Assembly: GCA_965215265.1 (NCBI GenBank)
Contig: OZ244048.1
Location: forward strand, 1,536,001-1,600,000
Source of the DNA: Candidatus Poribacteria bacterium
Lineage (GTDB): Bacteria > Poribacteria > WGA-4E > WGA-3G
Length of the DNA: 64,000 nt
Direction of reading: 5' to 3'
The translations under genes were made by a program, and so were the position numbers. Of this stretch, positions 26,297 to 63,051 are shown piece after piece. The notes under the pieces were generated by a model that saw only the letters and a program-made list of their open reading frames with translations, ran no database searches and was not told where the DNA came from. Numbering within the stretch: position 1 is the first letter of the stretch; every line of letters starts with the position of its first letter.

Positions 26297-29029
26297 ATGA
26301 ATAATAAAAGCGTGTCAGTGATGTTAGCAATATTGGCGTGTATAGTTTTAAGTTTAGGGAGTGTTGGCAATGTGTGGGCACAAAGGGTAAGCGTGGCTGC
26401 GGATGTCGGTGTGCTTTCGGCTGTGAAAGGTGATGCGGATGTGAATGGTGATGGCCGTGTGGATATAGTGGATTTGGCACTGGTAGCGGCGCGCCTGGGA
26501 ACCCGCGGTAACAGTTCGGCAGATTTGAACGGGAATAGTGTAGTGGATATAGGGGATGTGGCGTTAGTAGCAGAGGGGTTTAACGGTGCGGCGTCTGCAC
26601 CTGCGGCACCTGCGTCTGTGCCTGCAGGGATGGTGCTCATCCCCGGCGGCACCTTCCAGATGGGCAGCGATGCTGCTGATGCGCGGGATAACGAGCAGCC
26701 TGTGCGGAGGGTGCATGTGGACGCGTTCTATATGGATACGCACGAAGTGACTAACGCGGCGTATCAAACTTTTGTGCTGGCGAACCCGCAGTGGCAGAAG
26801 GGGCGTATTTCGGATGCCTTCCACAGCGGTAAGTACCTAAAACATTGGGAAGGTAATAACTATCCAGGGGGTAAAGGGGACCATCCTGTGACGTATGTGT
26901 CGTGGTATGCGGCGATGGCATATTCTGCGTGGGCAGGGAAGCGTCTTCCAACGGAGGCGGAGTGGGAGAAAGCGGCACGCGGTGGGGAGGCAGGCCGGAA
27001 GTATCCGTGGGGAGACACGATAACGGCGAACGATGCGAACTACGATAGGAATGTAGACGATACGACTTCTGTGGGGAGTTATGCTGCGAACGGGTATGGG
27101 CTGTTCGACATGGCTGGGAACGTTCACGAGTGGTGCCTTGATGAATGGGATAAGACATTTTATGCTGCGTCTCCGTCTCGTAATCCGCTGCGTGGTGTGT
27201 CTGGTAGTACGCTTGCGAATGTGGCTGAGATTGTAGCGGACTACACAGGCGTAAATGTGAACTTAAAGCGGGTTTTGCGGGGTGGTAATTGGCGTGCTGA
27301 TGCACGTTACCTGCGCGTCGCCGATAGGTTCAAAAGGGAGCCGACGTTCACGGAAAGCTTCGCCGGGTTTCGTTGTGTGAGTGCAGAGCCGCCGCCGGAG
27401 CTCCCCACACCGCCGGAACCACCCACACCGCCGGAGCCACCCGCACTGGAGCCGGAGCCACCCGCACCGCAGGCACCTGCAGGGATGGCCCTCATCCCCG
27501 CGGGCGAGTTCCAGATGGGCAGCAACGATGCCGAGGCCGATGGTGACGAGCAGCCTGTGCGGAGGGTGCATGTGGACGCGTTCTACATGGATACGCACGA
27601 AGTGACGAACGCCGAGTATAGAAGTTTTCTGCTGGCGAACCCGCAGTGGCGGAAGACGCGGATTCCGGATGCCCTCCATGATGGTAATTACCTAAGCGAT
27701 TGGGACGGTAATAAGTATCCTAAGCGTAAGGGGGACCATCCTGTGGTGAATGTGTCGTGGTATGCGGCGATGGCGTATGCGGCGTGGGCAGGTAAGCGTC
27801 TTCCAACGGAGGCGGAGTGGGAGAAAGCGGCGCGCGGCGGTTGGCTAGGGTTAAAGTATCCGTGGGGAAAGACGATATCCTCTGTGCATGCGAACTACGG
27901 TAGGAATGTAGGGGACACCCGTCCTGTGGGGAGTTATGCGGCGAACGGGTATGGGCTGTTCGACATGGCCGGCAACGTTTACGAGTGGTGCCTTGATGCG
28001 TATAATGTGGATTTTTATTCTGCGTCTCCGTCTCGTAATCCGCTGAGTGGAGTGTCTGGCAGTATGCTCGCGAATCTGGATGAGATTGTATCGGACTATA
28101 CCAATATTGAGTCTTCTCGCGTGTTGCGCGGCGGTAGCTGGTCCTTTGATTCACTCTTCCTGCGTGCCGCTAATCGCCGCGGGGATACCCCTACAGACAC
28201 CAACGGCAGCTACGGGTTCCGGTGTGCGAGGGCTGTGACTCCTTCCGTGCCGCCGGCACCGGGAGGGATGGCACTCATTCCCGCGGGTGCCTTCCAGATG
28301 GGCAGCAACGATGCCGAGGCCGCTGGTGAAGAGCAGCCTGTGCATACGGTGTATGTGGACGCGTTCTATATGGATACGCACGAAGTGACGAACGCCGAGT
28401 ATAAAAGTTTTGTGCTGGCGAATCCCGAGTGGCAGAAGACGCGGATTCCGCCTGCACTCCACAATGGTAATTATCTAAACCATTGGGACGGTAATAACTA
28501 TCCAGTGGGTAAGGGGGACCATCCTGTGACGTATGTGTCGTGGTATGGTGCGATGGCGTATGCTGCGTGGGCAGGGAAGCGTCTTCCAACGGAGGCGGAA
28601 TGGGAGAAAGCGGCACGCGGGGGGTTAGTTGGTAAGAAATACCCGTGGGGAGACACGATAACGCCGGACGATGCGAACTACGGTAATAATGTAGGCGGTA
28701 CAACGGCTGTGGGGAGTTATGCAGTGAACGGGTATGGGCTATATGATATGGCCGGCAACGTGTGGGAGTGGTGTCTTGATGCGTATAATGAGGATTTCTA
28801 TTCTGCGTCTCCGTCTAGTAATCCGCTGAGTGGTGTGTCTGACAGTATGCTCGCGAATCTGGATGAGATTATAGATAACTATACCAATGTTACCTCCTCT
28901 CGCGTGTTGCGTGGCAGGGGTTGGGCCGATAATCCGCGTACCGTGCGTGTCGCCGCTCGCTTCGGGCCTCCGCCGACGCTCACGTTCAACAACCTCGGGT
29001 TCCGGTGTGCGAGGGCTGTAACCCCTTAA
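26297..29029 (+). CDS. Secreted dockerin plus three tandem FGE-sulfatase (C-type lectin fold) domains; candidate DGR target
   Basis: GGAGG before ATG 26297; three copies of FQMGS...RLPTEAEWEKAARGG...DMAGNV.EW...GFRC separated by Pro-rich linkers. Confidence 0.9.
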   Translation: MNNKSVSVMLAILACIVLSLGSVGNVWAQRVSVAADVGVLSAVKGDADVNGDGRVDIVDLALVAARLGTRGNSSADLNGNSVVDIGDVALVAEGFNGAASAPAAPASVPAGMVLIPGGTFQMGSDAADARDNEQPVRRVHVDAFYMDTHEVTNAAYQTFVLANPQWQKGRISDAFHSGKYLKHWEGNNYPGGKGDHPVTYVSWYAAMAYSAWAGKRLPTEAEWEKAARGGEAGRKYPWGDTITANDANYDRNVDDTTSVGSYAANGYGLFDMAGNVHEWCLDEWDKTFYAASPSRNPLRGVSGSTLANVAEIVADYTGVNVNLKRVLRGGNWRADARYLRVADRFKREPTFTESFAGFRCVSAEPPPELPTPPEPPTPPEPPALEPEPPAPQAPAGMALIPAGEFQMGSNDAEADGDEQPVRRVHVDAFYMDTHEVTNAEYRSFLLANPQWRKTRIPDALHDGNYLSDWDGNKYPKRKGDHPVVNVSWYAAMAYAAWAGKRLPTEAEWEKAARGGWLGLKYPWGKTISSVHANYGRNVGDTRPVGSYAANGYGLFDMAGNVYEWCLDAYNVDFYSASPSRNPLSGVSGSMLANLDEIVSDYTNIESSRVLRGGSWSFDSLFLRAANRRGDTPTDTNGSYGFRCARAVTPSVPPAPGGMALIPAGAFQMGSNDAEAAGEEQPVHTVYVDAFYMDTHEVTNAEYKSFVLANPEWQKTRIPPALHNGNYLNHWDGNNYPVGKGDHPVTYVSWYGAMAYAAWAGKRLPTEAEWEKAARGGLVGKKYPWGDTITPDDANYGNNVGGTTAVGSYAVNGYGLYDMAGNVWEWCLDAYNEDFYSASPSSNPLSGVSDSMLANLDEIIDNYTNVTSSRVLRGRGWADNPRTVRVAARFGPPPTLTFNNLGFRCARAVTP

Positions 29030-42930: not shown

Positions 42931-43543
42931 ATTTTTTGTATATCTCCGTACCATCAACGCTTATATCGTGGGTACTCGTGTGTAAATCTCGCCAGAGCCA
43001 TTCTAGATTATGATTCCTCAATCACCTTCAGACGCTTTTATGCTTCATCACGTTTTTTTGTATATCTCCGTACCATCAACGCTTATGTCGTGGGTACTCG
43101 TGTGTAAATCTCGCCAGAGCCATTCTAGGTTATGATTCCCCAATCACCTTCAGACGCTTTTATGCTTCATCACGTTTTTTTGTATATCTCCGTACCATCA
43201 ACGCTTATGTCGTGGGTACTCGTGTGTAAATCTCGCCAGAGCCATTCTAGGTTATGATTCCTCAATCACCTTCAGACGCTTTTATGCTTCATCACGTTTT
43301 TTTGTATATCTCCGTACCATCAACGCTTATGTCGTGGGTACTCGTGTGTAAATCTCGCCAGAGCCATTCTAGGTTATGATTCCTCAATCACCTTCAGACG
43401 CTTTTATGCTTCATCACGTTTTTTTGTATATCTCCGTACCATCAACGCTTATGTCGTGGGTACTCGTGTGTAAATCTCGCCAGAGCCATTCTAGATTATG
43501 ATTCCTCAATCACCTTCAGACGCTTTTATGCTTCATCACGTTT
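42931..43543 (-). repeat. Tandem array, 5 x 122 bp, each unit containing an A arm
   Basis: gtatatctcc recurs at 42938, 43060, 43182, 43304, 43426; units differ at only about 3 positions. Confidence 0.97.
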
Positions 43544-47949: not shown

Positions 47950-48876
47950 ATGTTTCATAAAAGGATTTCAATGAATTTGAGGCTTTTCTTGTCTGCTAAA
48001 AACGTATCAATGGTATTGGCGTGTCTACTCACCGTTTTGGGTTGCGGTGGCACGAAAAGGGCTGCCCCGACCGCCGCGCCGCCTGCTGGCATGGCGCTTA
48101 TCCCTGCTGGCGATTTCCGGATGGGTAGCGACGATACAGATTCTCGGACGAATGAGCAGCCGGTGCACCGTGTGTATGTGGATGCGTTCTATATGGACAC
48201 GCACGAGGTGACAAATTCGGACTACAAGCGTTTTCTGCTTGCAAATCCGCAGTGGCAGAAGGGACGTATTTCTCGTGCACTCCACAATGGTGAGTACCTA
48301 AAAGACTGGAATGGGAATAACTATCCTGCGAGTAAAGGAGAGCATCCGGTGAAGCATGTGAGTTGGTATGCGGCGATGGCTTATGCACGGTGGGCAGGGA
48401 AACGTCTGCCGACGGAGGCGGAGTGGGAGAAAGCGGCACGCGGCGGTAAAAAAGGGCTAAAATACCCGTGGGGTAACACGATAACGCCGAGTGATGCGAA
48501 CTATGGTTGGAATGTCGGAGATACTTGTGCTGTAGGGAGTTATACGCCTAACAGGTACGGGCTGTATGACATGGCGGGTAACGTTCACGAGTGGTGTCTT
48601 GATGCATATAATGTGGATTTCTATTCTTCGTCTGCGCGGCGTAATCCGTTAAGTGACGTGGGTACGATAGCCAATCTGGGTGCGATTATAGATGCTTTCA
48701 CAAAAGTTAAGTCGGTTCGCGTGTTGCGAGGCGGTAGCTGGTACGATAATGCCCGACCTGTTCGCGTCGCCTATCGTGGCGGGGCAACGCCGACGGATTC
48801 GTTCATCAACCTCGGTTTTCGTTGCGTGAGGTCTGTTCGACAGTCAGAAGCAGGATTTGCAAGATTGGAGGACTGA
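47950..48876 (+). CDS. FGE-sulfatase domain lipoprotein, paralog of the 26297 domains
   Basis: Lipobox-like VLGC, RLPTEAEWEKAARGG, RGGSW...LGFRC; exact start uncertain. Confidence 0.88.
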   Translation: MFHKRISMNLRLFLSAKNVSMVLACLLTVLGCGGTKRAAPTAAPPAGMALIPAGDFRMGSDDTDSRTNEQPVHRVYVDAFYMDTHEVTNSDYKRFLLANPQWQKGRISRALHNGEYLKDWNGNNYPASKGEHPVKHVSWYAAMAYARWAGKRLPTEAEWEKAARGGKKGLKYPWGNTITPSDANYGWNVGDTCAVGSYTPNRYGLYDMAGNVHEWCLDAYNVDFYSSSARRNPLSDVGTIANLGAIIDAFTKVKSVRVLRGGSWYDNARPVRVAYRGGATPTDSFINLGFRCVRSVRQSEAGFARLED

Positions 48877-49070: not shown

Positions 49071-49700
49071 GTGTGTTGGCAGGATAGGTATTCTTTAATG
49101 TCAAATACAGTTAATCTAAAAATATTTCAAAAAACGTTCGATTCTTATTTTTGGAAATGGTACGGAGTTGTGAGCATCCTTTATGTTTCTATTTTCTGCA
49201 CCTACACTGCCGTGGCATTCGGTATCCTCACAAGTGAGTCTGAGTTACCTCCGTTTCTCTACCGACTCATTGCCCCGCTTGAATATTCAGAGTGGATGGG
49301 TGGCATTCCAATTGGCGGAAAGCAAATCGGTTTTCTAACATTTGGTGCTATGTCAGTTGGGGCTGTGTCTATCGGTGCCTTTTCTGTTGGGATTGTTTCT
49401 GTTGGTGCTTTTTCAATAGGAGTTTTTGCGTTTGGTGGTAACTCTTTGGGTATCATCGCCATCGGAGGAGGGACAAGTTTTGGGTGCTTTGCCGGAGCGG
49501 CAAAGACAAGCGGGAGATTTGACATCGGTAAGGCGTTAGGTGTGTTCGCGGTTGCTCCTGAAACTTATGGTGTCTATACGTTATCTTACAATGGCGGCGG
49601 CACCTACAGTTTATCACCATCTCGTGCGGACGCGGAAGCGGTTGCATTTTTTTGCCGGTGGTTACCAAAATTCAAGAAAACTTTTCACAGTCCGGCTTAA
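49071..49700 (+). CDS. Membrane protein with Gly-rich pentapeptide-like repeats
   Basis: GAMSV-GAVSI-GAFSV-GIVSV-GAFSI; start uncertain (ATG 49098 likely); degenerate A-arm fragment at 49028-49076. Confidence 0.6.
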   Translation: MCWQDRYSLMSNTVNLKIFQKTFDSYFWKWYGVVSILYVSIFCTYTAVAFGILTSESELPPFLYRLIAPLEYSEWMGGIPIGGKQIGFLTFGAMSVGAVSIGAFSVGIVSVGAFSIGVFAFGGNSLGIIAIGGGTSFGCFAGAAKTSGRFDIGKALGVFAVAPETYGVYTLSYNGGGTYSLSPSRADAEAVAFFCRWLPKFKKTFHSPA

Positions 49701-50053
49701 CGCTCGCCAATTGTCGACGGCAACTTCTCTCGAAATCAGTCGCTTATGGTTGTTGGAAAACGTTCCGTCCATTCTGAGTTTGCCATGTCTTATCTGATGT
49801 TTTTGACATGCGCCCAGGTACTCGCCAATTTCCCAGTCGGTGAAACGGCTAAGGCTTTCTCAAGTCCGTTATTCATGACATGTTTGATGTTATCGTCGGT
49901 GAGTGGTGCGTTAAAAACGCCGACTTCATCAATGAACCCGCGGAAAGACCAGCCAGGATTTTTCCAAGAGGCAAGCCAAATCTCACCATCGGGTTTATCG
50001 TCAGCTTTCCCGACCTTTTTATCTGCAACGGGTTCGCCGTCCACGTAGAGTTT

Positions 50054-50170
50054 TTCGTATATCTCCGTACCATCAACGTCTATGTAATGATAACTCGTGT
50101 GTAAATCTCGTCGGAGCCTCACTAGGTTATGATTCCTCAATAACTTTACGTGCTAACTCTTCAATCTCGA
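50054..50170 (-). mobile_element. 117-bp intragenic insertion containing an A arm
   Basis: Separates YDGDII from KLYVDG. Confidence 0.8.
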
Positions 50171-50263
50171 AATGATATCGCCATCATAGGTGAGGGCGAC
50201 AAAACTCCACTCGTCTTGTTTCCATGTACCACCTCGGATATGCGTTGCGCCCTGATCTGCGTT

Positions 50264-50350
50264 TTTTCGTATATCTCCGTACCATCAACGCTTATGTCAT
50301 GAGTACTCGTGTGTAAATCTCGTCGGAGTTTTTCGATGCTATGAATCGTT
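50264..50350 (-). mobile_element. 87-bp intragenic A-arm insertion with AACG direct repeat
   Basis: cgtt at 50260-50263 and 50347-50350; separates SIAVN from ADQGATH. Confidence 0.85.
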
Positions 50351-50916
50351 AACAGCAATACTTCCGTAAAAATCGGCAGCTCCGATTTGTATGGTGGGGT
50401 TATGCCAATCGCGTTCAATTAGCCGTGTGTGCGGATTGGGGGGTGCAGTAGTCGGTTTGACCCAGAGGAGATACGTGAAACCGTCAAGGTAATCGTCGGT
50501 AGTTTTGCTTGCGAGGATGGCGACGTGGCCCGTGCCATCAAACTCCAACCCTTTCCCGAGTTTTCCATCTGTCCATTTCGCTTTTACTACGAGTCCATCA
50601 TTGCCGTTTCCGGAACGATCTTCGACTTTGTCGCCTTTTCCTTCGTCAAGCAGCCAGATGCCAATAATCGATTCCGGATCTATTTTGGCAAAGGCATCGT
50701 GCTGGTAAATCTGAATTGGGAATATCGCTACCAGAGTTATGAGACAAAATGCGATACATGTTATAGTTCTCATTTTAGAAGTTTCCCCTTTGCTTAGATC
50801 TGATTTTACTACATTTAAAAGATTATAGTATTTCCCGTTTATTGTCAATGAACTTACGAGATATTCATTAGCCCCATTTTTTTGCGTGAGTAATATATAG
50901 ATGCGATGCGTTGCTG

Positions 50917-51110
50917 TCAGAGAGAGCGTGTCTCGGGAATTTTGTCTCCGACTACCCAAACAACAATTCCTCCCTCTTTTGTTACGCGATAGAGATGCAC
51001 TGCGATACTTTCGAAGTCAAATGAGTATCCTTTGTAGTCACGAAACTTGTCGTAGGGAGGAGATGTCGCGGTGATATCTATAATTTGTTCATCAGAGAGG
51101 TGCCCAGTTT
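50917..51110 (-). pseudogene. N4-cytosine/N6-adenine DNA methyltransferase fragment
   Basis: IDITATSPPY...LYRVTKEGGIVVWVVGD only. Confidence 0.7.
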
Positions 51111-51175
51111 CCGTTAGTGGCAGAACTGATTGAAATCTTGGCGGCAAATATTAAGAGATAAGCCACACATGTGCC

Positions 51176-53878
51176 TCAAAACTCATATATAATTCCGAAA
51201 GAGAAAAAGATGGGGAATTGGGGTATCTCCAGAGATTCATTGGCTTCTCTCCAGTCAAGTTCTTCCATGTCACTCTCATACTCTAACGTTTCGATGCCCT
51301 CTACCAATTGATCAGCAATGCTTAACCTTATTTTATTTCTGCTGTTGTAGACATTCAAGATTTCGATAAACGTCGTTATAGGGATTCCCCACCGCGTTGT
51401 TTTGCGACTGAAACGGAGATCCAAGCGGTTATAAGCCGGGAACTCTGTTGGCAAAATTGCACCTGTAACATCAGAGATGAGTGGGTGCATCCCCACCGTT
51501 ACAGGGTCCTGAACCATAATGAGGGTATTTAAGGGAACTGCGGTGGTACCACTAGAATATTGCCACCTCGCACCGATCTCCGTTTTAGTCGTTGGGTTGT
51601 AGTTGGCAACAATGCTAACAACGTGTGTGTTATCAAAGAGAAAAGGTTTGTAGCCATCTTCCGGTGTCTCACGTCGTTCGGCGTGGGTATAGGCATAAGA
51701 TACCCATCCGAAGAATTTTTCGCTCACGCGGTGCCGCAAGAACATCTCTGCTCCGCTCACAAACCCTTTTCCTTGATTGAGGTACGGTGTTGTAATCACG
51801 GTGTCCGATTCATCAAAAAGTGCCCCAAGATCTACGGATCGCGTGGCTAATTTTTGCATGTGTTTGTAGTAGAGTGAGAATTTGAGTTCTGTCTGCGGTG
51901 AGAGTTGATGTTCTAACTCCATGATATAATGCTGGGTTAGGCTTGATTTTAGCTTCCGGTTCCCCTCGGCCTTTAGGACCTGATATGCTAAGGGGCTCTG
52001 TTCATAGCTGCCGTAGGCGAACCGGAGGGTGGAAGTCGTTGGCAATGTGACGCTAAGGCTTCCACGCGGCTGAATTGAGAGTTCATCTGTCAAATTGAGA
52101 TAATCAAACCGCACACCGATTGCCATTGACAGAAATGAGAACAGATCATAGCGTCCTTGTAGGTATCCCTCGGCACGCCGAAACGCGTAATTAAATTCGT
52201 CGTGTTTTTGGCCCCATGACGGTTCCTCATCATCATCAAAATCTACGGTTGCTAGGAAAGTGGTGCGTGCGAGACTCTTGGCTGGACTAAATGCAAGGAG
52301 AAATCCTGGCTCAAATTGAAGTGTCGGTGTTAATTGGTAAAACACGTCTTCGCGAAGCGTATACATAGGGGTGTTAACCTTGACATTGTAGATGAATTCT
52401 TCGTTCTCAGCGCTGTCGTCTTGACTTGAGGCATCCTTGAAATTGACATTGAGAAAATTGTGAGAACGTGTGAGGGAGAGATAGGACGTGAGTTTATCAG
52501 TGAAATTAGAGCGGAGATGGATGCCTTCTGCTTCAAACCCGTTTTTGAAATATGCAGAAAAATCACCGGTGTCTTCGATATCTTCTGACCTAAAATTAGA
52601 GAAGTCAAAAAAATCTGTGGCTCCCAAACCGTTGAGCGTGAGGTGATGCTTTTTCGTGAGTTGATAAGCAAATTTGAGTTGATAGTCAGACCAGTTTGGA
52701 AATGTCCAATCAACAAAACGCCCTAAAATGAGATCGAGTGTGGTGAATCGCCCTGCAATGGATGCGTACCCCTTGTTGCCAATTTTGGCTCCAACGAAAC
52801 CAGAGGGTGAAAAAATGTTCAGGTCGAGCGTGCCTGTTAGCCTCTTTTTCAACTCTTCACGCGAACGGATGTCAATAACCGATTGTGAATCCAATCCAAA
52901 TTCGGCACCGTAGCCGCCAGCATAGATGCGAATGTCTTCAATACTATTTGAGTTAATCGTTGAGATAATGCCGCCAAAATGGAACGGATAGCCGACCGGG
53001 GTTCTATCTAAATACATGAGCGTTTCCCCCGGCGCACTTCCACGGATATAGAGGATTCCGAAGATATCGTTGGGGATACCGATGCTCGGCAGCGTCGTGA
53101 GCCCTTTGAGTGCATCACGCCCTATGCCGGGAATCCGTATCAGTTCGCTACCTTGAATCTGCTTTCGGCTAATCGTCGGCCGGAGGCGTTGGCCCTCCAC
53201 CACAACTGTTTCTAGCTTTGCCACTGTCCCGAGATATACTTTCACCTGTGTAGTCTCGCCTGCTGTTACCTCTATTGTCGTAGCCATCGGTGTCTTATAC
53301 GCTGCATGTGTGATGGACAGGGTGTAGGTGTCAGGCGCGATGTCTGTAAACTGAAAGTTTCCGGAAGCATCTGTTTTTCTGGACACGTTGATTTCGACAA
53401 GGAGGCTCTCTGCCTCGGCAAGAGGCTTCCCTGTTGTTTGGTCATAGACATAACCGTCGATATCCCCGTTATTGGTGGCTTTCACAAACGTAACCGCTGT
53501 ACCGGGGTAAAATCTTCCGCGGAGCGTCTCGCCCGCACGAATCTCAATCAGAATCTCTGTGGGTGTACTATAGATGGGATGGGATATGGAGAGTGTATAT
53601 GTTCCGGTAGGAATTTCGGTAAACCGAAATGTTCCGTCTTCATCTGTTTTTTGGGACTCCTCAATCTCAACGAGGTGCACCTCAGCTTCAACTAACGGTG
53701 TAGCGGGGTCGTGCTGGAGGACTGTGCCTTCTATATCACCTGTGTGCGGAAAAACCCGCTGCCAGATGCTTTTTTTCGTTTTTGAGGTCTTGTCTTTTTT
53801 AGTATCGTCCGTTTCGGCAAAAACAGAGAACGTTACCATGAGCACTACAAACAGAACTAGATATGAACAAAATTTCAT
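51176..53878 (-). CDS. TonB-dependent receptor with two carboxypeptidase-regulatory-like domains
   Basis: Signal peptide, duplicated GDIxG.V repeats, plug (LYIRG, YAGGYGAEFG), barrel ending in F. Confidence 0.88.
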   Translation of the reverse strand: MKFCSYLVLFVVLMVTFSVFAETDDTKKDKTSKTKKSIWQRVFPHTGDIEGTVLQHDPATPLVEAEVHLVEIEESQKTDEDGTFRFTEIPTGTYTLSISHPIYSTPTEILIEIRAGETLRGRFYPGTAVTFVKATNNGDIDGYVYDQTTGKPLAEAESLLVEINVSRKTDASGNFQFTDIAPDTYTLSITHAAYKTPMATTIEVTAGETTQVKVYLGTVAKLETVVVEGQRLRPTISRKQIQGSELIRIPGIGRDALKGLTTLPSIGIPNDIFGILYIRGSAPGETLMYLDRTPVGYPFHFGGIISTINSNSIEDIRIYAGGYGAEFGLDSQSVIDIRSREELKKRLTGTLDLNIFSPSGFVGAKIGNKGYASIAGRFTTLDLILGRFVDWTFPNWSDYQLKFAYQLTKKHHLTLNGLGATDFFDFSNFRSEDIEDTGDFSAYFKNGFEAEGIHLRSNFTDKLTSYLSLTRSHNFLNVNFKDASSQDDSAENEEFIYNVKVNTPMYTLREDVFYQLTPTLQFEPGFLLAFSPAKSLARTTFLATVDFDDDEEPSWGQKHDEFNYAFRRAEGYLQGRYDLFSFLSMAIGVRFDYLNLTDELSIQPRGSLSVTLPTTSTLRFAYGSYEQSPLAYQVLKAEGNRKLKSSLTQHYIMELEHQLSPQTELKFSLYYKHMQKLATRSVDLGALFDESDTVITTPYLNQGKGFVSGAEMFLRHRVSEKFFGWVSYAYTHAERRETPEDGYKPFLFDNTHVVSIVANYNPTTKTEIGARWQYSSGTTAVPLNTLIMVQDPVTVGMHPLISDVTGAILPTEFPAYNRLDLRFSRKTTRWGIPITTFIEILNVYNSRNKIRLSIADQLVEGIETLEYESDMEELDWREANESLEIPQFPIFFSFGIIYEF

Positions 53879-53879
53879 G

Positions 53880-54112
53880 TTTTTGTATATCTCCGTACCA
53901 TCAACGTCTATGTAATGATAGCTCGTGTGTAAATCTCGTCGGAGCCGTTCGACGTTTTGACTCTAAATATCACCTTCCTCCTCCTCCGTATCTTCACCGC
54001 TTATCGCTTTTTTGTATATCTCCGTACCATCAACGTCTATGTAATGATAGCTCGTGTGTAAATCTCGTCGGAGCCGTTCGATGTTTTGACTCTAAATATC
54101 ACCTTCCTCCTC
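53880..54112 (-). repeat. Two tandem A-arm units, 129-bp period
   Basis: gtatatctcc at 53885 and 54014; proximal copy ends 1 nt before ATG 53878. Confidence 0.92.
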
Positions 54113-54265
54113 CGTTTTCAGTTTTGTTGCCTGCCGCCGCGGCTTGGATGAGGTAAATTCACTCAAGCTGGGACAGGAATATTCTCTGATTTCGATTAAT
54201 CGTGGAATACTTCCATCAATTGAATCTGTTTCGAACTTAAATTGGTTGTAATGATCGAATTGGGT

Positions 54266-62271: not shown

Positions 62272-63051
62272 ATGAAATCCATTATAGTTTGCTTAGTGCT
62301 CCTAGCCATCAGTCTAACCTTTACAGTCCAAAGTTATGCGGAGATCGACTTTGGAACCGCAAGAGGGATTTGGCTATTAGACGAGGCTCAAGGCGATGTT
62401 ATCAACGATATTTCTCAGAACGACAATCACGGTGAACTTCAGGGCGGAAAATGGGTCAAAGGACCCAATGGGCCTGCGCTAAGTTTAGACGGGGTAAACG
62501 ATCGGGTTATCATTCCGGATTCCGATAGTTTGTATCTGGAAAATGCGTGGACGATTACGGCCTGGACTTTTGTGAATAAAGCCGAGAACGGTTATGGACA
62601 TATTCTCGGCAAAAGGCCTGCGGCTGGTACAGTGGCAAATTACGCGTTCAGGACAAGTAGCAACGGGGCCGGCTGGGAAGCTTACTTTGCTAGAGACGGC
62701 TGGAAGGGTGCTTGGGGGCAAGGGAACGTGAAGAAAGATACTTGGTTGTATATGACTGCAACCTATGACGGCAAGGATAACATTAAAATCTACGAAAATG
62801 CAGAGGAAATCGGTTCTGTTGGCGGGATGGGGAAACCGGCACCTCAGAATAACACGGATGTCAATATTGGCGGTTGGACTGACAACACTTCAGAAACGCT
62901 TAACGGTATGCTCTATGAGGTGGCACTTTTCGATGTTGCCCTGGAAGTAGAGGATATAAGTGAACTGATGGAGAGTGGGCTCTCGACACTCCTGCCTGTT
63001 GAGCCTTCTGGCAAACTTGCTACTACATGGGCAAGAATCAAATCTGAGTAA
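62272..63051 (+). CDS. Secreted LamG-like jellyroll protein
   Basis: Signal peptide, GIWLLDE, TYDG, VEPSGKLATTWARIK; AGGAGG RBS. Confidence 0.88.
   Translation: MKSIIVCLVLLAISLTFTVQSYAEIDFGTARGIWLLDEAQGDVINDISQNDNHGELQGGKWVKGPNGPALSLDGVNDRVIIPDSDSLYLENAWTITAWTFVNKAENGYGHILGKRPAAGTVANYAFRTSSNGAGWEAYFARDGWKGAWGQGNVKKDTWLYMTATYDGKDNIKIYENAEEIGSVGGMGKPAPQNNTDVNIGGWTDNTSETLNGMLYEVALFDVALEVEDISELMESGLSTLLPVEPSGKLATTWARIKSE

Follow-up and report, generated by a model that had tools for sequence, protein, structure and literature searches.

The LamG gene read from position 50773 to 49790 on the minus strand of the window (the whole stretch of DNA that was analysed, 64,000 nucleotides of a Poribacteria genome) is most probably a pseudogene of very recent origin: among about 36 paralogs, this one has been hit twice by a currently mobile, non-coding and species-specific mini-element. 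Both inserts carry in-frame stops, so that translation is expected to stop after residue 144, with loss of the protein; the gene would thus have lost its function. The window lies in a single-contig genome of 4.83 Mb (48% GC, 95% complete) in which 36 matches to the LamG domain were recorded. The parts of the gene, its intact paralog and the copies of the element that are referred to below are listed in Table 1.

Table 1. Positions in the window of the LamG gene segments, the two inserts, the intact paralog and other copies of the element.
Feature	Position	Strand	Description
LamG segment 1	50347..50773	-	ATG, signal-peptide-like N-terminus and first half of the domain (codons 1-142 + 1 nt)
Insert 1	50260..50346	-	87-bp short form of the element, sense
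LamG segment 2	50171..50259	-	89 nt
Insert 2	50054..50170	-	117-bp long form of the element, sense
LamG segment 3	49790..50053	-	contains the TAA stop; PF13385 match
Intact LamG paralog	62272..63051	+	259 aa; Laminin_G_3 PF13385, 66.6 bits, E 3.6e-18
Tandem array	42932..43543	-	five head-to-tail 122-bp units (period 122, 5.0 copies, 98% matches)
Second tandem array	53880-54113		1.8 x 129 bp
Start-adjacent copy	53879..53944	-	A-run ends one base before the ATG (53878) of a 900-aa ORF

Translation of the minus strand from 50773 to 49790 yields a single frame that is interrupted by four stops. It opens at the ATG of position 50773 with MRTITC and runs to a first stop after AVNDS, which is followed by two further stops, an open stretch of 43 residues and a fourth stop, beyond which the frame stays open to the TAA at 49790. 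Three of these stops lie in insert 1 (after AVNDS, HEYS and HKR), and the fourth, a TAG after SRLKS, is supplied by the 5′ extension of insert 2. The core of insert 2 is in the frame that is translated in other genes (LRRDLHTSYHYIDVDGTEIYE), and insert 1 is in another frame. The sequence AACG is present at both ends of insert 1, so that its boundary slides by 4 nt. Outside the inserts the gene segments contain no further lesion, and the scripted excision of both inserts by their coordinates left 780 nt with a terminal stop only, that is 259 codons plus the stop. The structure described in the earlier note (87-bp and 117-bp inserts in sense orientation, stops in both, the AACG repeat, one frame and no other lesion) was fully borne out, and its claim that removal gives 780 bp and 259 aa, the length of the intact paralog, was confirmed by this excision. 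Segment 3 reaches 28.6 bits against PF13385 (cut-off 27.6), and segment 1 alone gives no match. Neither promoter-like (sigma-70-type) sites nor a terminator were detected in the inserts; two promoter-like sites in 49700-50900 lie outside them, the expectation from shuffled sequence being 2.2. Before its stop (window 49790-49850) the gene encodes a C-terminal motif, V.P..KL...W..[IL]K, that is common to the LamG paralogs and orthologs, and a sorting signal is one possibility for its role. Immediately upstream of the gene lies a 76-aa ORF (window 50917-51147, minus strand) which is probably a gene fragment; from an SPPY motif, read by eye and unscored, we take it to be the N-terminal piece of a DNA methyltransferase.

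Orthologs were sought with segment 1 in 41 genomes, comprising the genome itself and 40 relatives. The best of them come from other genera of the family, are 76-77% identical and have open frames of about 271 aa that are free of stops; paralogs within the genome reach at most 39% identity (tblastn), and the same-genus genome, G001, gave a LamG match at the level of a paralog only. Ten orthologs from 10 related genomes (254-263 aa, and one with an open frame of 224 aa) were aligned with a read-through translation of the window gene in which X stood at the stops. All ten are uninterrupted, and in none of them is a residue found opposite either insert. Segment 1 aligns colinearly with them up to the point between GSIAV and N, and the ortholog flanks, GSIAV-NADQ and YDGxxL-xL[YF]VDG, are those of the window gene after removal of the inserts. 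In one ortholog (L002) the Laminin_G_3 match scores 71 bits and extends over residues 75-232. The ratio dN/dS, which the earlier note had proposed to determine against uninterrupted orthologs, is 0.11 and 0.08 for the joined segments compared with the two closest orthologs, with dS near saturation; the LamG gene has therefore been constrained over most of its history.

The occurrence of the gene with and without its inserts was followed in public sequencing data, where a search returned matches in 17 runs from 10 studies, none recorded as RNA; contigs of four runs were aligned. Two of the four runs, from two studies, hold empty alleles with about 99% identity to the window (X7 and X6), and the other two, from two other studies, hold filled alleles (X1 and X5). 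The X7 contig (4658 nt, depth 118) covers 49700-50053, 50171-50259 and 50347-50900, skipping exactly the 117 bp and the 87 bp, and has nine other letter differences and an insertion of TACA upstream of the start codon. In X6 the 117-bp skip is on one contig and the 87-bp skip on a second. Segment 2 is connected straight to its neighbouring segments by X7 record 24 and X6 record 17. The joint left by the 117-bp insert (50053 to 50171) has a positional ambiguity of 0 nt, and at the joint left by the 87-bp insert (50259 to 50347) 4 nt fit either side, these being the AACG repeat. Exact DNA junctions that lack the inserts, of the kind for which the earlier note had proposed to look, are thus present in the X7 and X6 contigs. 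These alleles differ from the window allele by seven (X7) and four (X6) coding differences, which marks them as sister strains and not as revertant molecules of one population.

The filled alleles bear on the question of whether the assembly might have misplaced copies of a repeat into a gene that is in fact intact. The high copy number of the element, and the fact that short-read contigs break within it, would favour such an artefact. X1 records 4 and 8, however, bridge three of the four junctions between insert and gene (insert 2/segment 2, segment 2/insert 1 and insert 1/segment 1); each of these has 31 nt or more to either side and no mismatches, and the fourth is covered by 27 nt only. 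X1 record 4 is free of mismatches all the way from insert 2, across segment 2, to insert 1. The contigs of X5, which belongs to another study, run from the gene into the inserts and stop there instead of skipping them. An assembly artefact is thus extremely improbable. Taken together, the skipping and the insert-carrying contigs indicate that the insert-free form exists as DNA of sister strains, and that the inserts are recent and polymorphic among strains. The empty alleles of the public runs and the ten orthologs make the empty state the ancestral one and the inserts recent, and the direction of change appears to have been insertion rather than excision.

The existence of filled and empty alleles in nature might also be expected of a reversible DNA switch, in which precise excision would reactivate LamG, as in the phase variation of a surface lectin, and the X6 and X7 alleles would be revertants. 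Such a switch would find a 4-nt direct repeat flanking insert 1, excision would restore a perfect frame of 259 codons, and the LamG gene is one of a large set of paralogs whose products are secreted. Insert 2, however, has no flanking repeat from which a precise deletion could proceed, since no nucleotide fits either side of its joint, and the empty alleles stand on different SNP backgrounds, as their coding differences show. Furthermore, the empty state is ancestral in all ten orthologs, no recombinase is linked to the element, and no insert-free joint was seen in the contigs of X1 or X5, though contigs drop rare variants. A switch of this kind is therefore regarded as improbable.

The preferred reading, that of a young pseudogene, leaves some features to be accounted for. 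Both insert lengths are multiples of three, which is most simply a matter of chance (1 in 9), yet two hits in one gene of 780 bp, both in sense and both of such a length, are an unusual coincidence. The nearest copy of insert 1 in the genome is 94% identical over 84 nt and that of insert 2 is 89% identical over 121 nt, from which it follows that the donors are absent from the chromosome as assembled. Imperfect nearest copies are odd for fresh copy-and-paste; the donor may have been extrachromosomal or lost, or the copying may be error-prone. Other genes interrupted by stops were sought by a screen for repeat clusters flanked in either direction by 60 or more open codons, a screen which short fragments escape, and none was found among 24 of the 51 candidates that were inspected, all of these being junctions of gene, repeat and gene or copies that are read through.

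The element itself is abundant in this genome and confined to it among those compared. A search by nhmmer with insert 2 found 335 copies in the genome. The tail gave 20 matches in the 64-kb window against 314 in 4833 kb, an approximately five-fold local enrichment, and in the window a 24-mer of the element has 15 matches (with at most three mismatches) and a 28-mer 17, with no matches to either in shuffled sequence. It was found in none of 40 relatives, the same-genus genome among them, and there were no matches in IMG/VR; ten JGI metagenome contigs share an 18-mer with it, as chance matches only. The typical unit measures about 82-88 nt, and the longest about 197 nt. In its fullest form the element consists of a 20-nt left arm (CTGTGTAAATCTCGTCGGAG), a loop, a complementary right arm and a tail of 46 nt. 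The loop between the arms is 25, 33, 40 or 41 nt long, and 156 of 408 arms have a partner. All copies have in common a 3′ end of the form ...CGTTGATGGTACGGAGATATAC[G/A]AAAAA, the tail ending in GATATAC[G/A]AAAAA, while the 5′ starts are spread over about 120 nt, several start points being recurrent. The alignment is about 50 copies deep at its 5′ extreme and becomes more than 300 deep in the final 60 nt.

In the copies of about 197 nt the 5′ extension is homologous to the last approximately 50 codons of a TerS-like helix-turn-helix (HTH) gene. This gene (L118:981-1703, G000:C1:3557480-3558202) is single-copy and encodes a protein of 240 aa with two HTH domains, the best PHROG match of which is to a terminase small subunit (1.4e-11), and two copies of the element come after it. 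It was considered as a mobilising factor and set aside as a lead only, being single-copy and having no catalytic domain by Pfam, with only the last 50 or so codons recurring.

With respect to genes, the copies show a marked preference of orientation. Of those situated between co-directional ORFs 200 of 264 are in sense, as are 16 of the 18 inside crude ORF calls. Of 327 copies 38 are followed, 0-4 nt past the 3′ end of the element, by the start of an ORF of 80 aa or more, compared with 3-14 copies in each of the other 5-nt bins; the end of the element thus does function beside start codons elsewhere in the genome. It is conceivable on these grounds that the fragments of the LamG gene are translated separately, the GGAG/A-rich end of the element providing the downstream pieces with a ribosome-binding site; the ORF that starts at window position 53878 is an example of the arrangement that this proposal has in its favour. 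Neither LamG insert, on the other hand, is followed by an ATG, the nearest candidate start past insert 2 being a GTG 6 nt beyond the A-run, and the pieces would split a single beta-sandwich domain, Laminin_G_3 occupying ortholog residues 75-232. Separate translation of the fragments is accordingly held to be quite improbable.

One sense frame of the element core is open (LRRDLHTSYHYIDVDGTEIYEK), and copies that are in frame and free of stops occur in linkers of UvrA, GlyQS and GcvP, where the relatives have none. At ten read-through sites the frame is open for 100 codons or more in both directions. Pfam identifies the host genes as a fused double UvrA, a GlyQ-GlyS fusion and GcvP, and the copies fall between the domains. 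The same fused genes are present in all five relatives examined, without the residues derived from the element. The UvrA-UvrA and GlyQ-GlyS fusions (L020 and L021; G000:C1:1077177-1083425 and 4244340-4247525) measure 1901-2083 and 1037-1062 codons, respectively, in the genome itself and the five relatives. Copies without stops in essential genes are what selection on a translated sequence would produce, and would be unnecessary under splicing. At G000:C1:1637600-1638900 (minus strand) an ORF which resembles a sulfotransferase, from an unscored reading of motifs, has two to three partial copies in frame between its conserved blocks. A repeat of 33 nt that is unrelated to the element and forms a hairpin (unit TTGCATCGAGACCGGGAGGTCTCTCCTAC...) was encountered in another Poribacteria genus (genome G002, locus L024:1915-2085 and L133-L135). 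It has 55 matches, with 1268 first-look candidates, forms tandem arrays and is translated in the same UvrA loop, so that coding sequence may be subject to invasion by repeats throughout the phylum.

The read-through copies also bear on the proposal that the inserts are removed at the RNA level, as tiny introns or by ribosomes that bypass them, in which case full-length LamG would still be made. Translational bypass with take-off and landing codons is known from gene 60 of phage T4, and AAC, the codon that precedes insert 1, is found again shortly before the insert ends, superficially like such a pair; the sense orientation of the inserts and their lengths, each divisible by three, would also suit this proposal. 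Insert 2, however, has no matching take-off and landing codons, and at 87 and 117 nt the inserts are far below the size of known self-splicing introns, which are far larger than this. An Rfam search of the window at gathering thresholds gave no match, despite the 20 matches to the element tail there. RNAalifold found no consensus structure, variation at the predicted pairs being mostly one-sided and pair-breaking. Finally, the copies in UvrA, GlyQS and GcvP are stop-free in the frame of the host, as expected of translated sequence, which argues against removal from RNA; this is considered very improbable. The idea that the element is a structured RNA was examined separately. The fold, which was derived from the consensus, has pairing in 78% of cells where slid partners have 33-44%, and the idea was dropped because compensatory changes were absent at the predicted pairs.

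Of the two inferences drawn in the earlier note, that of a very recent insertion agrees with the ten uninterrupted orthologs, the empty contigs of about 99% identity, the lack of any other lesion and the dN/dS of 0.08-0.11. Its alternative, precise removal at the DNA or RNA level, did not find support: the empty form occurs in the DNA of other strains only, insert 2 has no flanking repeat, Rfam matches and compensatory changes are lacking, and copies are translated elsewhere.

The manner in which the element moves can be approached from the ends of the two LamG inserts, both of which are without the left arm and without terminal inverted repeats. Insert 1 begins within a few bases of the symmetry centre of the loop in its nearest relative copy, and insert 2 begins at TCGAGATTGAAGAG, like two other copies. 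At both sites A residues of the target continue the A-run of the element (the AA of AACG at site 1 and AAA at site 2). The target duplication is 4 nt at site 1 and 0 nt at site 2, which does not fit a transposase with a fixed stagger, and the element is in this respect unlike a transposon with terminal inverted repeats that moves by staggered cuts. The ends would be compatible with a process of copy-in that is anchored at the 3′ end, uses A/T microhomology and is driven by an enzyme or factor acting in trans; we infer such a process with low confidence.

Candidates for an enzyme were sought in the genome. No match to the Y1 transposase (PF01797) was obtained in G000, the controls matching in six genomes, and IS110-type and TnpB proteins likewise gave no match in the genome; in the search for IS91-type transposases the control itself found no match anywhere. 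A crude screen for a parent insertion sequence (IS), in which left and right arms 300-5000 nt apart were paired, enclosed eight unrelated ORFs and no recurring transposase, and a census of long repeats gave 191 repeated regions, none of them linked to the element. There is one reverse transcriptase match (RVT_1) in the genome, and no other, within a cassette resembling a diversity-generating retroelement (DGR). An involvement of the DGR, which would show as adenine-specific variation between copies, was rejected, as most A columns of core and tail are 95-100% conserved.

The DGR-like cassette (L013, G000:C1:1418596-1422237) comprises a target gene, an accessory ORF of 118 aa and a reverse transcriptase of 354 aa, labels which come from reading the ORFs, RVT_1 alone having been scored. 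Its template-repeat region has about 30 further matches in the genome, among them window 28115-28229 and 28898-29012, and is matched at 81% by a C-terminal stretch (48717-48776) of an FGE-sulfatase-like ORF (window 47950-48876, plus strand) that adjoins the LamG gene. A further repeated unit of about 2 kb was observed at L131 (G000:C1:4114900-4117800), where it lies beside integrase-like fragments; it is repeated at least nine times at 90-95% identity. By eye, from a DPPF-type motif that is unscored, it is presumably a DNA methyltransferase, split in this copy into 128 and 486 aa, and a copy of the element lies just beyond its stop on the opposite strand.

Several classes of short bacterial repeats offer themselves for comparison. 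The Rickettsia palindromic elements (RPEs) are described in a review (PMC10969869, citing Ogata et al. 2000 and 2002) as short, high-copy and partly palindromic elements that are situated in protein-coding genes and read in frame. Judged by that description, the Poribacteria element is similar in being read through in frame in conserved genes (UvrA, GlyQS and GcvP) and absent from their orthologs, and it differs in its unit of about 87 nt, as against about 150 bp, and in its phylum. Most of its copies, moreover, are intergenic and sense-oriented, and the two in LamG carry stops, breaking the gene rather than extending it. We know of no mobilising enzyme for the RPEs, and none was found for the Poribacteria element either.

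The mycobacterial MIRUs, reportedly described by Supply and colleagues in 1997, are said to be intergenic repeats in sense orientation that form head-to-tail arrays and abut the start codons of downstream genes. The Poribacteria element shares these traits, being likewise sense, intergenic, arranged in head-to-tail arrays and adjacent to start codons, but it is found in coding sequence as well, and its single insertions are polymorphic. With REP sequences and REPINs it has in common arms that form hairpins, a high copy number and clustering between genes; it differs from the REP/REPIN-RAYT system in the absence of a Y1 (RAYT/IS200-type) transposase from the genome and in its long asymmetric tail. 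The Correia element of Neisseria is presented in the same review (PMC10969869) as a small multi-copy element whose presence in coding sequence varies among strains. As far as that account goes, the Poribacteria element resembles it and other MITEs in being short, non-coding, present in many copies and strain-variable in coding sequence. In contrast to MITEs its inserts are without terminal inverted repeats and most of its arms are unpartnered, duplications are of no fixed length (4 and 0 nt), and no IS with matching ends was found. The element thus resembles, in the terms of the review, both the RPEs, as it is translated in genes, and strain-variable MITEs, as it disrupts them, while departing from the latter in structure.

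A wider reading would join these observations into an undescribed route of mobilisation in bacteria, combined with repeats that are tolerated or exploited across the Poribacteria. Under it, a single-stranded intermediate would be the source from which short units are copied in, with the A-rich 3′ end as anchor and with a few preferred 5′ starts, one of them at the centre of a hairpin, and neither a self-encoded transposase nor terminal inverted repeats would be needed. The repeats would yield linkers in housekeeping enzymes and 5′ leaders at start codons, and would silence, and perhaps later reactivate, members of large surface-protein families such as LamG. The 33-nt repeat in the UvrA loop of another genus hints that such use of repeats is phylum-wide. 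As a whole this wider reading is unlikely, and it is offered as speculation. A literature search at the level of titles and the openings of abstracts found no work on repeat elements in Poribacteria.

The broken LamG gene is in itself an ordinary young pseudogene. As its filled and empty alleles are both documented, two fresh insertions can be delimited with single-base precision, and direct evidence of this kind for mobility that is still going on in an uncultured sponge symbiont is rare. Of wider significance is the element, which is species-specific, has about 335 copies and no recognisable transposase partner, and is read through as part of essential enzymes, behaviour for which Rickettsia is the best-known case. 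Should the pattern prove to hold throughout the Poribacteria, it would bear on the diversification of symbiont surface proteins, on the origin of new peptide linkers and on the annotation of metagenome-assembled genomes (MAGs), in which such repeats can mimic or mask the boundaries of genes.
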